From positions 4,542-68,541 of IMG/VR virus record IMGVR_UViG_3300034012_002457: a stretch of 64,000 nt of DNA; one strand, given 5' to 3'. The stretch is from a virus. Each line of letters begins with the position of its first letter. Position 1 is the stretch's first letter. The notes beneath the pieces were generated by a model, which was given only the letters and a program-made list of their open reading frames with translations, was not told the DNA's origin and made no database searches. A program made the position numbers and the translations under genes. This document shows, in pieces, positions 29,143 to 35,553 of the stretch.

Positions 29143-29865
29143 GCGAGAGGGACAATCGTTGCAAAGCTTAACAAGTAAAAAACTAGTAGTCACACGCTGA
29201 ATCAAGCCCTCGCAGAGGGCGCAGATGAAGCGTTCTCCTCTTCCTCCTCTAATGGAGGCGCCCAAAGCGCCGTAATGATGCACAAAGAAGCTGGCATTTT
29301 CTAAATTCGCGCATTTTCCTTGCATCGTCTATCGCTTAAAGCGGCCCCTTAGAGGGCCGCTGTTCTAGACAATATTACTTTTTCTTAAAAAAACAGCCCG
29401 TTCTGGCTGCTGCGTATAGTTTCCCAAGACCATTACTTAGGACTGGTCCAGCCTTTTTGTATTTCGCCACTCGCCAGTAGCTCCGTCCCTTTGGGGGACT
29501 CCGCATTATTAAGAGCACCGTGGCTTGTCTAGCCTTTTTAGCTCATCACTCCGCGCTTTAGGCGCTTCGTTGGAGGGGAAGGTGCTCGGGAGAGGCTAGC
29601 GAGGAGCGTCTAATTGCTCTGGAGGGGCGAAATTTAGACGCTGCTGCGCTTACGCATATCGTAAATGCTCTGTCAAGCTTTGTCAAGAGGCTCAAAACCC
29701 TTGCAAATACTAGAAAGGGGCCTAAAAGGCCCCGAAAACCATGGAAAAATTGCCCGTTTCTTAAGGATGTCTTCTGTTTTGTCAGGCAATGAAGAAGAAT
29801 GTATTAAAAACTACCAGTCAAATTGTTGATAGTGACTAGCCTGAAATGATCACCGCTAATTAATT

Positions 29866-30057: not shown

Positions 30058-30148
30058 AGGAAGTTTTCCATTCCTGCATGGGAAAAATTGGCTAGCCTGC
30101 CTGTTGTAAGTTTTGGGGCCGTAAGGCCCTTTCTTGTCTCTGGAACCA

Positions 30149-31576
30149 ATGGTTGACAAAATTGCCCGCACTGGCAGGGTGCAAAGCTGGATGGAAAGCC
30201 CGAATGGACGGCTGCCGGTTAGCTGCACGGTGTTCAACGTGCAAGATTCAATGGAAGGAGGGGACGGCATTGAAGCGTCTTGGCGCTTTGTTAGCCATGG
30301 CCTGCGTAATGGTGCAGGAGTGGCGGTGCATCTTTCTGAGCTTCGCCCCAAGGGCGAAGAAAATGGCAAAGGCTTGGTTGCTAGCGGGCCTATCAGCTTT
30401 GGCAAAATCTATTCGACGCTCAATGAAATTCTGAGGCGTGGTGGTTTATACAAAAATGGAGCTGTGGTCCTGCATTTGGACTACACGCACCCTGACGCCA
30501 TGGAATTTGTCAATGTTTCCAGACAGGAACTGCCTTGGACGAAGCGTTGCCTTAATGTGGACGAGCAGTTTCTGGACAAGGCTTCGCCTGGGCTGATTAA
30601 TGCCGCTCTTCGTGCCATCTCTGCTGGCGACCTCTGGCTCAATAAAATTCGCTACAACGACAAAGGCGAGCGCATCAGAGCGAATGTATGCCTGGAAGTT
30701 TATCTTCCGCATCGTGGCACTTGCTTATTGCAGCACATTAATCTTGGCGCATGCAGCATTGATGAAATTAAAGGGGCGTTTGTTGAGGGCATGACGCAAC
30801 TGTGCGAGCTTCATGCTCAAACAGGCGTTGGCGACACTGGTGAATATCTTCCTCCCATTGTTGACAAGCAAGTGGGGCTTGGCCTGTTAGGTCTGGCTAA
30901 TTTCTTGAGCATTCATGAAATTAGCTATGCCGAATTTGGCAAAGCGCTAAAGGCGTTTAATCAGGAAGATCCAGAAGATTGGTATGAAGTGATGGACAAA
31001 CCAGTGGGCAATGCTGTGTTTGCCATTCACAAAGGCATTCATGCTGCGGCTGACATTGCGCGTGAGGCTGGAATGGACCGTGCCTTTGCCATTGCTCCCA
31101 CTGCATCGTGCTCCTATCGCTACCAGGATCTTCGTGGCTTTACAACCACGCCCGAGATTGCCCCTCCCATTGCTCGGGAAGTAGATCGTGATAGTGGCAC
31201 GTTTGGCGTGGAAAGCTTTGATTATGGTCCCGTGGAGACTGCAGCAGAGGTGGGCTGGGAAGCTTACAAGCTTGTTACAGACGAGCTTATTCGCATGTAT
31301 CAAGCGAGCGGATTGCTCCATGGCTATTCGTTTAATTCGTGGAGCGATGTGGTTGTTTATGACGAAGCCTTCCTGAAGGATTGGCTAGAATCTCCTCAGA
31401 CGAGCCTCTATTACAGCCTGCAAATTCTTCCGGACACTCAACGGAAGGATGATGCATATGCTGCATTGGACGACGATTTTAAGAGCATGTTTGGCTTAGA
31501 CGATGAGTCTGAAGCTGAAGGCCCTTCTGCATCTTGTTCCGTAGAGGCTGGATTCTGCGCTGCATGCGCTGAATAA
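30149..31576 (+). CDS. nrdA: Ribonucleotide reductase large subunit (short cyanophage Cyano-SP type)
   Basis: LPVSCTV, ANVCLEV, TCLLQHINL, AIAPTASCS, C-terminal CxxC. Confidence 0.88.
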   Translation: MVDKIARTGRVQSWMESPNGRLPVSCTVFNVQDSMEGGDGIEASWRFVSHGLRNGAGVAVHLSELRPKGEENGKGLVASGPISFGKIYSTLNEILRRGGLYKNGAVVLHLDYTHPDAMEFVNVSRQELPWTKRCLNVDEQFLDKASPGLINAALRAISAGDLWLNKIRYNDKGERIRANVCLEVYLPHRGTCLLQHINLGACSIDEIKGAFVEGMTQLCELHAQTGVGDTGEYLPPIVDKQVGLGLLGLANFLSIHEISYAEFGKALKAFNQEDPEDWYEVMDKPVGNAVFAIHKGIHAAADIAREAGMDRAFAIAPTASCSYRYQDLRGFTTTPEIAPPIAREVDRDSGTFGVESFDYGPVETAAEVGWEAYKLVTDELIRMYQASGLLHGYSFNSWSDVVVYDEAFLKDWLESPQTSLYYSLQILPDTQRKDDAYAALDDDFKSMFGLDDESEAEGPSASCSVEAGFCAACAE

Positions 31577-33071: not shown

Positions 33072-33207
33072 TATTTTGAAGGCCATTGATAATCACATGG
33101 CTTTATATTTGCGCTATCGCGACCCTTGGCATTTACAACAGGCAGCAATGCTGAGGAACTATTTAAGAGAGCTTAAGGCTTACATTCATAAGAAAGAAGG
33201 AAAATAA
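33010..33207 (+). CDS. Hypothetical protein
   Basis: ORF. Confidence 0.55.
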   Translation: MDERRTFNTPIREPWNAPIHNILKAIDNHMALYLRYRDPWHLQQAAMLRNYLRELKAYIHKKEGK

Positions 33208-33241
33208 TTTAACTTTCTTTTCCATTGTCGTGTATCTGGCG

Positions 33242-33255
33242 GTAACAATTGTTAC
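33242..33255. promoter_or_regulatory. NtcA box
   Basis: Perfect GTA-N8-TAC palindrome GTAACAATTGTTAC, 13 nt before TAGCTT. Confidence 0.7.
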
Positions 33256-33295
33256 AGAAAAAGAGGCGTAGCTTTAAAGAAATAGCGATAGTCTG

Positions 33296-33457
33296 ATGAC
33301 AACGCTTGTTTATCGTGGCGTGCCCTATTCAATGGAACAGGAGCATGAAGCTTTTTCTCAATGGTGGAGCTTCATCCATCGTCCAGTGTTGTGGCTTGTT
33401 TATCGCGGACAAAAATACCGCCCCTGCCAATTTGACAAGGGCGGCAAGCGAGCTTAA
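33296..33457 (+). CDS. DUF4278 family peptide
   Basis: Manually read 53 aa with two LVYRG..Y motifs: MTTLVYRGVPY...LVYRGQKY. Confidence 0.8.
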   Translation: MTTLVYRGVPYSMEQEHEAFSQWWSFIHRPVLWLVYRGQKYRPCQFDKGGKRA

Positions 33458-33462
33458 TCGCC

Positions 33463-33564
33463 TCAGGCCACGCAATAGCGATGGCCGTGCAGCGAAGCCA
33501 ACTGAGCCTTGCGAAGACGGGCAGCTTTTTCAAGCTGCTGCTTCACGAGCAACAGAGTGTTCAT
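33463..33564 (-). CDS. Riboswitch-controlled downstream peptide
   Basis: MNTLLLVKQQLEKAARLRKAQLASLHGHRYCVA; in-frame alternative ATG at 33576. Confidence 0.65.
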   Translation of the reverse strand: MNTLLLVKQQLEKAARLRKAQLASLHGHRYCVA

Positions 33565-33577
33565 GGCGCTCTCCATG

Positions 33578-33630
33578 GTCCACCTCCCGTTCCGTAGGTG
33601 GGTGTCATGCGCCCCATGCGGGGTGAACGT
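33578..33630 (-). promoter_or_regulatory. Glutamine-II (Downstream-peptide) riboswitch
   Basis: CGUUCA-CCCC..GGGG-CGCA...GGAACGGG with ccaccu/aggugg pseudoknot potential; TG-c-TAAGCT -10 just upstream. Confidence 0.75.
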
Positions 33631-33648
33631 AGATGCAGCTTAGCACGA

Positions 33649-33722
33649 TACCCTCGGTGGGAGTCGAACCCACACTGGAGCGATTTTAAGTCGCTTGCCT
33701 CTGCCGGTTGGGCTACAAGGGC
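33649..33722 (-). tRNA. tRNA-Leu(TAA), short variable arm, no encoded CCA
   Basis: GCCCTTG/CGAGGGT acceptor; AGCGA-CTTAAAA-TCGCT; GTGGG-TTCGACT-CCCAC. Confidence 0.88.
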
Positions 33723-33724
33723 TA

Positions 33725-33866
33725 GACATCGAGGCGTCGAGGCGGGGCTTCAATCCGCCTTTGTACGACATTTAACCACGGGTCGGCCCATGGCCTCGAT
33801 TGGTCTGCAAGACAGTGCCTGCCACTGTCTAGTTGTAACGCTGGCCAGCGTGCTTCGCGAAAGCCT
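33725..33866 (-). ncRNA. Structured RNA upstream of tRNA-Leu
   Basis: Stems gacagtg/cactgtc, atcgagg/cctcgat, ccatggg/cccgtgg, aggcgg/ccgcct; extended -10 TGcTATGCT. Confidence 0.5.
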
Positions 33867-33890: not shown

Positions 33891-34154
33891 TCATACGTCA
33901 TATTCCTTGCATTCCTGGCTGTCGGGGTGGGCCCGGCAGTAATCGTCAAACGTGCCTTCATCATCGAGGCATTGCTCCAGCGCTTCAATTTGCCCCAGAC
34001 GCTTGGCATAGTCCTTGAGCTTGGGCAATAGCACGGGAATATAAAGGTGTTCGGCTGCTAGAAGCTGCAGAGAAGTTTGCTTACTAGTGGTGCCATTTTC
34101 AAGAAGCGCAATTAAAAACTGCGTTTCTTGCATAGTTAATTTGCAATAAGCCAC
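33891..34154 (-). CDS. Hypothetical protein with CP12-like C-terminus
   Basis: Ends FDDYCRAHPDSQECKEYDV, matching the CP12 C-terminal motif (YC..NP...EC..YD). Confidence 0.6.
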   Translation of the reverse strand: MAYCKLTMQETQFLIALLENGTTSKQTSLQLLAAEHLYIPVLLPKLKDYAKRLGQIEALEQCLDDEGTFDDYCRAHPDSQECKEYDV

Positions 34155-34185: not shown

Positions 34186-35553
34186 CTAGGAGATTAAGCT
34201 TTCGATCCATCCAATGTCATCATCTTTAGATGCAGCCAAGATTGCACCAGCCATTGCAAACGCTAAGTCGTCAATCCCCGTAGCCTTGCCGCCAGTAACT
34301 GTCCATTGTCCACTGGGCTTGTAAGTGACAGTAAGGTTTTTGATTTGCATGATGGCTTTCTCGTGGCGATATAAATTAATTTGCCCTGCATTGAACAATT
34401 CCCGCATTTTGCTGAAAGCCTTCATTTTGGAACTAACGGTCCAAGTTAGTTCCGTAATAGGCAGATCACCGGCAAGAGTTTGAATGGTGCCAGCACTATT
34501 GAACTGGTCCATCACAATTGTGTCAAAGACGTATAGGCGATGCTGCTCTTTTATCCAATCTTCCACTGCATTGATATTCACTTCCATCCTTCCATTGATT
34601 TCAAAATCAGCAGCAAAGGAATGGAATTTATCAACGACTAACGTGCCGTTTTCAAAATGAACAATACAAGCAGTGTAATCATCACGGCCAACCCCACCTC
34701 GGGCAGGGTCCAGGGCCAAGACATAAGCACCTTGGAATTGGGCTCTGGGTGGTAAAGCCGCTCGACGGTCATCAATACAGGCGTCAACAACATCACTGGA
34801 AACAAGAGCTGAAAGATTACTGGCAAATTGAGCGCCATATTCCACTTTAAATTTTTCAGGGTCGCGCTGTCTTTCTGTGTCAAGAAACTCTTGCGAAATG
34901 CGAGGGTTCATCTCCCACGTTGGGAGGTTTACGGCTTGCATGAAAGGGAAGCGGCCAGACGCTGCTTCTTTGAAATGCTGATAGAAGATGCCGTCAGTAA
35001 GCCAGGGGGAGGATAGTTCTAGGATGCGCCCATGACCGCCAAACTGAGCGATAGAAGGAGAAAGAGCGTCATAAATGCCACGTCCGCCGGAGTTAGCATC
35101 GCCTTCTGTGGCGAATGCAAGTTCATCAAAAACAGCACCGGCGCAAGCGAGACCACGAGCAGCACGCCCGGAAGTTGGTATAGCTTTAAAAACGCAGTGG
35201 TTACTAATTTCAATGATGTCGGCAGTTTCACGAACAATCTCTTGAGCGAAGGGACTTTCGATGATGAGCTGCCGGATGTTGTTTAGAGCAATGCGAGCCT
35301 GATCTTGACTGTTCGCAACAGTAACAACGTACCAGCGTTCTCCTTTTCTTACTTTACGACGATATTGTTCCTCTAGGACGAAACACATATAGATGCAGGC
35401 AATGGCTGCCATGAGCGTTTTGCCTGAGCGTCGCCCGAGAGCCCACACTGCATGCGACTTGCCGGGCTGAAAAAATTCATCGAGAATTTCAGCCTGTTTA
35501 GGAAAAAGCTCTAAATGAAGAGCGTGTTTGGCAAAGTCTGAACAGCGAAGCAT
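34186..35553 (-). CDS. terL: Terminase large subunit
   Basis: GRRSGKT Walker A, VFDE Walker B, LSSP, EYGAQF, ALDPA, DQFN, DDLAFA. Confidence 0.9.
   Translation of the reverse strand: MLRCSDFAKHALHLELFPKQAEILDEFFQPGKSHAVWALGRRSGKTLMAAIACIYMCFVLEEQYRRKVRKGERWYVVTVANSQDQARIALNNIRQLIIESPFAQEIVRETADIIEISNHCVFKAIPTSGRAARGLACAGAVFDELAFATEGDANSGGRGIYDALSPSIAQFGGHGRILELSSPWLTDGIFYQHFKEAASGRFPFMQAVNLPTWEMNPRISQEFLDTERQRDPEKFKVEYGAQFASNLSALVSSDVVDACIDDRRAALPPRAQFQGAYVLALDPARGGVGRDDYTACIVHFENGTLVVDKFHSFAADFEINGRMEVNINAVEDWIKEQHRLYVFDTIVMDQFNSAGTIQTLAGDLPITELTWTVSSKMKAFSKMRELFNAGQINLYRHEKAIMQIKNLTVTYKPSGQWTVTGGKATGIDDLAFAMAGAILAASKDDDIGWIESLIS

Follow-up and report, generated by a model that had tools for sequence, protein, structure and literature searches.

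Two small convergent phage genes with candidate nitrogen-responsive controls in a lake-water relative of Synechococcus phage S-CBS4

Analysis of a 64,000-nt stretch of viral DNA, referred to here as the window (bases 4542–68541 of the 68,541-bp IMG/VR virus record IMGVR_UViG_3300034012_002457, which has direct terminal repeats and is rated 100% complete), revealed two small genes lying tail to tail at the junction of a plus-strand gene block and a minus-strand gene block. The minus-strand gene encodes a 33-amino-acid (aa) peptide behind a Glutamine-II riboswitch, and the plus-strand gene encodes a 53-aa peptide with two YRG motifs behind a palindrome that fits the consensus of the nitrogen regulator NtcA. 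Our best explanation of the whole, to which we give a probability of about 0.6, is that the two small phage genes are expressed according to the nitrogen status of the host and that their products most likely act on nitrogen assimilation. An earlier reading of the letters of this DNA (the original prediction) had named a perfect palindrome 13 nt upstream of a TAGCTT -10, the double-YRG peptide, an extended -10 and a CGUUCA...GGCGCA...GGAACGG RNA before a 33-aa peptide on the opposite strand, and stop codons 5 bp apart; all of these were recovered at the following positions.

33242–33255, strandless: perfect 14-bp palindrome GTAACAATTGTTAC, a sequence match to the NtcA consensus GTA-N8-TAC
33269–33274, plus strand: -10 element TAGCTT (TAN3T type), 13 nt past the box and 21 nt before the ATG
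33296–33457, plus strand: gene of the 53-aa double-YRG peptide (phrog_5049)
33406–33446, minus strand: intrinsic terminator of the minus-strand unit, a 13–14-bp G+C-rich hairpin (33446–33416) followed by a U tract
33463–33564, minus strand: gene of the 33-aa basic helical peptide MNTLLLVKQQLEKAARLRKAQLASLHGHRYCVA, the helix half of phrog_545
33569–33574, minus strand: Shine-Dalgarno sequence GGAGAG, 4 nt before the conserved ATG
33579–33632, minus strand: Glutamine-II riboswitch aptamer (RF01704) with P1, P2 and a CGUUC/GAACG pseudoknot, from the Rfam covariance model
33637–33645, minus strand: extended -10 TGcTAAGCT, conserved as TGnTAnnnT

In the scheme that we propose, transcription of the minus-strand unit would start from the extended -10, and its RNA would begin at the first aptamer base. 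When glutamine is absent, base pairing would be possible between the 5' strand (CGUUCACC) and GG..GAGCG, a stretch overlapping the ribosome-binding site; with glutamine, the CGUUC/GAACG pseudoknot would be stabilised and the ribosome-binding site freed, so that the 33-aa peptide would be translated only at high glutamine (an ON switch), and the RNA would end at an intrinsic terminator embedded in the opposite gene. The plus-strand unit would be served by a -10-only promoter overlapped by an NtcA operator, where NtcA with 2-oxoglutarate would shut off the 53-aa peptide in nitrogen shortage. Under this logic, in which we have fair confidence, both peptides would be made in nitrogen-replete hosts.

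Comparisons were made with three sets of sequences: 19 viral loci (IMG/VR contigs) carrying a homologue of the 53-aa peptide, termed the related loci; 13 leaders, from the window, S-CBS4 and 11 related loci; and 12 sequences carrying the riboswitch gene, used for the counts on the 33-aa frame and the terminator. The minus-strand leader scored 42.4 bits against RF01704 (gathering score 33; E 5.6e-7) over the full model positions 1–60, with the same result from the whole virus record. Across the 13 leaders and 15 pairs, standard base pairs occupied 193 of 193 aligned cells, and 8 of the 15 pairs showed compensatory changes on both sides; the terminal pseudoknot pair was C-G in six sequences and U-A in seven. 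When the 3' partners were slid by 1–3 columns as a control, 44–70% of cells paired and 0–1 pairs were compensatory. By identity and covariation, the minus-strand RNA is therefore a genuine Glutamine-II (Downstream-peptide) riboswitch, as originally predicted. Among the 19 related loci, the aptamer exceeded the gathering score in nine and was present by motif in 11.

The promoter of this unit is conserved, with TGnTAnnnT standing exactly 6 nt before ACGTT in 13 of 13 leaders, and it predicts a transcription start near 33630, the first base of the aptamer core. Ahead of the gene, every leader except that of S-CBS4 keeps ATGGAG (12 of 13). The Glutamine-II element has been shown in published work to act as an ON switch, and it has been proposed that its ligand-stabilised pseudoknot competes with a structure hiding the ribosome-binding site (PMC6212724, PMC6698751). 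The 5' strand (ACGUUCACC or ACGUUUGCC) was tested for pairing with the region before the start codon, and the best duplex took one and the same shape in each of the 13 leaders: CC lies opposite the GG of the ribosome-binding site, and CGUUC opposite a degenerate second copy of GAACG (GAGCG in the window). Its calculated energy was -4.8 to -7.3 kcal/mol, compared with -4.6 to -6.8 kcal/mol for the pseudoknot duplex. We propose this pairing, with modest support, as the OFF-state structure.

The 33-aa length was kept in 12 of 12 riboswitch-gene sequences. Variable sites in this frame were split 13/7/25 over codon positions 1/2/3, with 14 codon columns varying only synonymously, and those of the 53-aa frame were split 24/20/42; both open reading frames (ORFs) vary mostly at the third codon position, and the 33-aa frame is clearly under coding constraint. 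A 37-aa reading from an upstream in-frame ATG (33576–33574) was considered and rejected. That ATG overlaps the ribosome-binding site inside the conserved ATGGAG. In L006 and L021 it lies in another frame, and in the five other clade members with an ATGGAGG leader (L012, L013, L014, L016 and L018) the peptide frame is not listed as starting from it; judging from these alignments, it is probably not a real start.

The 33-aa peptide has an isoelectric point (pI) of 10.45, and AlphaFold2 modelled it as a single helix over residues 3–32 with a predicted local distance difference test (pLDDT) score of 80, rising to about 90 over the first 20 residues. In the PHROGs collection, which has no curated cut-off, it matched phrog_545 (E 8.8e-7) at positions 1–23 of 55 only, the helix half. 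It matched no Pfam family, DUF4278 included, at E <= 10; a PDB sequence search gave no match, the ESM Atlas no usable one, and an NCBIfam search nothing relevant to either peptide. A family profile search of 1.84 billion representative proteins returned 16 clusters at E <= 0.001, those looked up being all metagenomic, and several over-long gene calls among them translate the aptamer itself. The helix is nearly invariant in the 16 clusters and the tails vary freely, being YRG-type or short and non-YRG, mostly with a cysteine; the helix can therefore be regarded as the family core. A tblastn search with the peptide hit 208 phage records, 205 of them Synechococcus phages or cyanophages, with mostly weak individual E-values.

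The 53-aa peptide matched phrog_5049 (E 6.6e-6; profile positions 1–41 of 47). Its score against DUF4278 (PF14105) was 19.2 bits (E 0.0016), below the gathering score of 25.3, and its relatives scored 15.4–23.3 bits, so by sequence it is DUF4278-like and cannot be filed as a DUF4278 member under the Pfam rule. The original prediction had called both peptides DUF4278-like, which stands for the 53-aa peptide as a sub-threshold likeness and fails for the 33-aa peptide. It had also taken HGHRY in the 33-aa peptide as a replacement of YRG. The tail in the window's own clade is GYRPCVA, of which the window's HGHRYCVA is a variant, and we abandoned the idea of a direct replacement; inspection by eye of the other two frames found no frameshifted YRG tail.

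Relatives of the 53-aa peptide comprised 19 in IMG/VR (68–96% identity) and 11 protein clusters, all metagenomic, and the single isolate with a homologue was the T4-like phage DSL-LC03 (38.5% identity). AlphaFold2 suggested a hairpin-helix-hairpin topology for the family (pLDDT 63), and a PDB sequence search gave only chance-level matches to tyrosine hydroxylase (E 0.5–0.7). In full-length phrog_545 proteins, of which the 54-aa one in S-RIM2 is an example, two YRG repeats come after the helix seen in the 33-aa peptide, and phrog_545 and phrog_5049 cross-match weakly over the YRG part; on sequence grounds we take them as two related cyanophage small-protein families. Both appear restricted to phages and metagenomes. 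A complex prediction for the 53-aa and 33-aa families scored 0.02 against a mark of 0.32, a result that says nothing for or against pairing. In genomes of 185,579 species, the sole 'cellular' match to the 53-aa family was L024, a 1.2-kb contig in a metagenome-assembled genome of Aquiluna, which is probably a phage fragment in the wrong bin.

In the plus-strand unit, the perfect palindrome has no second copy anywhere in the window, and allowing up to three mismatches added one further match, equal to the chance expectation. The box stands 54 or 55 nt upstream of the ATG in 10 of the 19 related loci. These form three sequence groups, and each of the four box variants retains GTA and TAC. Across 10 box-bearing sequences, namely the window and nine of these loci (L005, which does not differ from L004 in the stretch displayed, was omitted), 11 of 14 box columns were invariant compared with 2 of 13 in the adjacent spacer. 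Mean column conservation was 0.96 for the box, 0.97 for the -10 and 0.61 for the spacer, the range for spacer and flanks being 0.61 to 0.72. The 13-nt spacing between box and -10 was invariant in every box-bearing locus, and TAGnnT was found 21–22 nt before the ATG in 19 of 19 related loci, box or no box. These comparisons show a conserved footprint of the box and the plus-strand -10. Some 11 nt upstream of the box (33231–33236 in the window) there is another conserved motif, (T/G)GTATC, which relatives that have lost the box also keep.

In NtcA-activated promoters, GTA-N8-TAC stands about 22 nt before a TAN3T -10. The spacing of 13 nt in the window and all box-bearing relatives, with no conserved TAN3T at N22, does not fit this class II type. 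The conserved -10, set at -12 to -7, predicts a transcription start near 33281, which would place the box at -39 to -26 with its centre at about -32.5. Activating NtcA sites are reported to be centred near -41.5, and the sites of the NtcA-repressed gifA genes at -30.5 in Synechocystis and -28.5 in Anabaena (PMC6316151). With its predicted start, the promoter would be of the gifA type, a consensus site overlapping the core promoter, and repression fits better than activation because the box would cover the core promoter near the gifA positions rather than -41.5. The NtcA box of the original prediction accordingly holds up by sequence and position, and the palindrome is likely to be an NtcA operator repressing the 53-aa gene.

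The two genes meet at their 3' ends, their stop codons being 5 bp apart in the window (33458–33462) and 3–5 bp apart in relatives. The minus-strand terminator hairpin begins 16 nt past the 33-aa stop codon and lies inside the plus-strand ORF, where the same stretch encodes RGQKYRPCQFDKGG and is thus read two ways. Its fold has an energy of -30 kcal/mol (z -2.36). The hairpin with a GGTATTT(T/C)T tail is present in 12 of 12 riboswitch-gene sequences, and the minimum-free-energy fold of an 80-nt stretch draws it in 11 of 12 (not in L017). Read on the plus strand, the hairpin folds more weakly and lacks a U tract; a terminator for that strand was not found at the locus. RNA-library contigs from two studies covered 33394–33588 (195 nt) and 33398–33557 (160 nt), and both end some 10 nt past the predicted terminator, which weakly hints at a small RNA from the minus strand; contigs of a third study derive from relatives, one of them lacking the riboswitch unit. 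The parts of 33100–33800 that these contigs leave uncovered are uninformative.

Homologous peptides occur in T4-like cyanomyoviruses such as S-RIM2 (phrog_545, E 2e-33) and DSL-LC03 (phrog_5049, E 2.8e-11), in small-gene operons located by the ribonucleotide reductase gene in the order phrog_504, then phrog_545 or phrog_5049. These operons resemble the window in their peptides, their glutamine-riboswitch-like leaders and the GTA-N8-TAC boxes just upstream. We sampled nine such loci, namely S-RIM2, DSL-LC03 and seven of 16 rows of an evenly spread listing; the rows skipped were S-CBS4, five additional S-RIM2 isolates, two additional ACG-2014f isolates and a chance-level Stenotrophomonas phage match. 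Six of the nine had a glutamine-riboswitch match at E <= 0.1 ahead of the operon, one reaching the Rfam gathering score, and four of those six had GTA-N8-TAC no more than 46 nt upstream of the aptamer. Whereas box and aptamer stand there in series before one co-directional operon, the window has separate convergent genes with one control each. T4-like phrog_545 proteins combine the helix with two YRG repeats in a single 54-aa chain; in the window, helix and double-YRG module are encoded apart. The controls are truly split, since none of the 13 leaders has a GTA-N8-TAC box within 200 nt upstream of the riboswitch promoter. In the T4-like loci (L022, L023 and L025–L031) CGTTCA and GGAACG alternate around each small operon ORF: in nine of nine, the start of the phrog_545 or phrog_5049 gene is preceded by GGAACG at a distance of about 40 nt, and in three an annotated ORF occupies the roughly 230 nt that separate the 5' CGTTCA from the GGAACG that follows it.

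The nearest isolate of the window phage is the siphovirus S-CBS4, with 72% nucleotide identity in the phosphoesterase-to-terminase region. Its gp007, annotated as a hypothetical protein, shares with the window a gene order that runs from the terL side through a tRNA and a Glutamine-II aptamer (44.9 bits) to the peptide, which is 80% identical to the 33-aa peptide over residues 1–25; it differs in being 39 aa long and in keeping one YRG motif. In the literature searched, no paper connected S-CBS4 with a riboswitch. The marine picocyanobacterial system, in which Glutamine-II riboswitches precede genes of DUF4278 or IF17-like proteins (Klahn et al. 2018, PMC6212724; structure in PMC6698751), has the same aptamer, above the Rfam cut-off here, placed directly before a very short ORF for a basic small protein and with an NtcA-type site in the regulatory picture; a perfect NtcA site is described at a riboswitch-controlled DUF4278 gene of Prochlorococcus MED4 (PMC6212724). 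The window differs in that the carrier is a lake-water relative of S-CBS4 rather than a marine cell, the product is a 33-aa helix without a DUF4278 match, and the NtcA-type box belongs to the second, convergent gene and not to the riboswitch gene.

The closest regulatory parallel is with gifA and gifB of Synechocystis, which encode the glutamine synthetase inactivating factors IF7 and IF17. Both genes are NtcA-repressed, and gifB has a glutamine-I riboswitch. Shared features would be the OFF state through NtcA in nitrogen shortage, the ON state through glutamine, small products described as basic, and, with gifA (-30.5), a box over the core promoter. The differences are the lack of detectable homology to the part that binds glutamine synthetase, an aptamer of class II instead of class I, and a division of the controls between two genes. 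The literature already describes T4-like cyanophages with glutamine riboswitches (PMC9964418, PMC9602691), NtcA sites in cyanomyovirus genomes (PMC3037559) and the combination of riboswitch and NtcA site at DUF4278 genes (PMC6212724). New here are this nitrogen-control logic in lake-water relatives of the siphovirus S-CBS4, the self-contained promoter-aptamer-peptide-terminator unit, the helix-only 33-aa form, the division of the two controls between convergent genes, and the terminator embedded in coding sequence.

Several observations weigh against the proposed nitrogen-responsive pair. The box is lost in nine of the 19 related loci, with both half-sites degraded in six and the intergenic stretch deleted in three, while the -10 and the gene are retained in all nine. 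The aptamer is missing from eight of the 19, and box and aptamer assort independently among these loci; neither control can therefore be essential, and the two are not coupled. Persistence of the gene without the box does, however, suit repression from a dispensable operator better than activation from a site that the gene could not do without. The plus-strand promoter shows neither a recognisable -35 nor a TG extension, which leaves its firing without an activator unexplained. On the minus strand, the proposed OFF-state duplex beats its controls weakly (the fraction of shuffles matching it was 0.025–0.47), and the minimum-free-energy fold of the leader was no better than shuffles (z -0.04), with the ribosome-binding site not clearly hidden. 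The RNA-library contigs may be carried-over DNA. In S-CBS4, an unrelated 64-aa 'rnf-like' ORF without a box takes the place of the YRG peptide on the opposite strand. As to function, Pfam, NCBIfam and PDB sequence searches, which included no direct comparison with IF7, gave no similarity of the peptides to IF7 or to C-terminal IF17; DUF4278 is described as the N-terminal part of IF17, dispensable for inactivating glutamine synthetase, and a role in glutamine synthetase control in picocyanobacteria is described as unproven (PMC6316151).

We consider host nitrogen-assimilation machinery the most likely site of action of the peptides, with glutamine synthetase as the leading candidate target by analogy, because DUF4278 proteins are labelled 'IF17-like' in print and the regulation resembles that of gifA and gifB. 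Slightly short of an even chance is the alternative that the regulation works as described while the peptides bind something other than glutamine synthetase (PII/PipX/NtcA signalling, a transporter, the translation apparatus and phage proteins are examples), in which case the nitrogen signals would only time production to well-fed hosts. Neither sequence nor profile links the peptides to glutamine synthetase inactivating factors, DUF4278 is not the part of IF17 that binds glutamine synthetase (PMC6316151), and the near-invariant helix core matches no named family or solved structure, in two families that appear limited to phages and metagenomes. Set against this, control of glutamine synthetase is the only functional lead printed for such riboswitch-controlled small proteins (as given in PMC6212724), and the 33-aa peptide is basic, like the IF proteins, whose action is described as electrostatic (PMC6316151). 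In the literature searched, no paper addressed phage-encoded glutamine synthetase inactivating factors in its title or abstract.

A doubtful alternative to the NtcA operator is that the palindrome serves some other dimeric regulator, of phage or host, or is a functionless relic. The palindrome is generic and perfect, its loss or decay leaves the -10 and gene in place, and its spacing is N13 and not the N22 of the canonical NtcA-activated class, all of which would suit such a reading. Phage repressors, however, usually have several operators, whereas this palindrome has a single copy in the window; all four variants retain GTA and TAC even where the inner bases change; GTAAC-N4-GTTAC boxes precede the homologous peptide operons of S-RIM2 and DSL-LC03; and GTA-N8-TAC occurs 13 times in the window against 3.4 expected, most occurrences lying inside ORFs by our reading of the ORF list. 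An NtcA operator remains our preferred interpretation of the box.

We regard it as improbable that the minus-strand unit is mainly a regulatory RNA, that is, a glutamine-sensing transcript of about 225 nt whose 3' end is complementary to the last 50 or so nt of the plus-strand mRNA, with the peptide secondary, an unterminated plus-strand transcript running antisense, and the tail-to-tail layout acting as a device through transcriptional interference or an RNA duplex. The close stop codons, the minus-strand terminator within the plus-strand ORF with no counterpart found on the plus strand, and the short RNA-library contigs would agree with it, as would the antisense effect discussed for tail-to-tail gifA/glnA in Nostoc (PMC11288750) and the description of Prochlorococcus Yfr6 RNA as initially considered non-coding (PMC6212724), but the synonymous-only codon columns and 13/7/25 split of the 33-aa frame, its conserved ribosome-binding site and start codon, the conservation of the helix in T4-like phages without convergent genes, and the occurrence of each unit without the other all speak for a peptide gene.

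Within the reading that the peptides act on nitrogen assimilation, a more specific version is a long shot. The conserved 25-residue basic helix (MNxLxLVKxQLxKAARLxxAQLAS) might be the effector, a glutamine-gated phage inhibitor of host glutamine synthetase that is analogous to IF7 and unrelated to it in sequence, and the NtcA-gated double-YRG peptide its partner or antagonist in trans; the convergent pair would then recreate the fused T4-like protein under separate 2-oxoglutarate and glutamine control.

In reviews, the small proteins behind cyanobacterial and cyanophage glutamine riboswitches carry the label 'IF17-like' ahead of any test (PMC6316151). The locus offers a small, clean test system, with a 54-nt aptamer that has its own promoter and terminator and a 33-aa peptide that can be synthesised, and natural variants with or without each control add to its usefulness. 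The locus also points to the helix rather than the YRG repeat as the core that the phage family conserves, which shifts the choice of the part to test. Should the peptides indeed act on nitrogen assimilation, the phages that infect lake-water picocyanobacteria would read two host nitrogen signals to time their interference with it.

Near-identical DNA to that of the window phage was present in many lake-water metagenome runs. The gene pair is flanked by the following features.

30134–31573, plus strand: ribonucleotide reductase ORF (PF02867)
between that ORF and the box, plus strand: ORFs without Pfam matches, then a 69-aa ORF ending at 33207, all of the plus-strand block
33649–33722, minus strand: tRNA-Leu(UAA), directly upstream of the riboswitch promoter
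33891–34154, minus strand: 87-aa CP12-domain ORF (PF02672; E 1.5e-4, score 22.9 bits with the cut-off at 22.7)
34186–35553, minus strand: terminase, by similarity to S-CBS4 terL

The CP12-domain gene lies two genes upstream of the riboswitch unit on the same strand. CP12 is a small Calvin-cycle regulator known in cyanophages (PMC7760959), and this neighbour supports a view of the region as a cluster of small genes that retune host metabolism. On the plus-strand side, GTATTAAAAACTAC is followed by TAGCCT after exactly 22 nt in an intergenic stretch (29801–29842, plus strand), about 330 nt before the ribonucleotide reductase ORF at 30134; a 22-nt spacing of this kind is canonical for NtcA-activated promoters.

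The tRNA-Leu(UAA), absent from the original prediction, ends only 3 nt from the extended -10, so that in the window the promoter fills the 16-nt gap between tRNA and aptamer. A tRNA occupies the equivalent place in S-CBS4 (Thr), L003 and L021. ARAGORN found no tRNA directly upstream of the riboswitch promoter in L006, L011–L014, L016 and L018; in these loci the sequence leading up to the promoter nevertheless closes with a T-arm resembling GGTTCGATTCC and, after it, a stretch like an acceptor stem. Such ends may be tRNA remnants or atypical tRNAs, and their recurrence suggests a constant link between tRNA 3' ends and the riboswitch unit.

A Rfam scan of the window gave no match to the abiF RNA (RF03085). 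This RNA exceeded its gathering score in L010 (330–366), L011 (477–513), L014 (315–351) and L016 (600–636), in each case 0.9–1.2 kb upstream of the YRG gene, and S-CBS4 had a match just under the cut-off (34.3 vs 37 bits; L001, 3013–3050).

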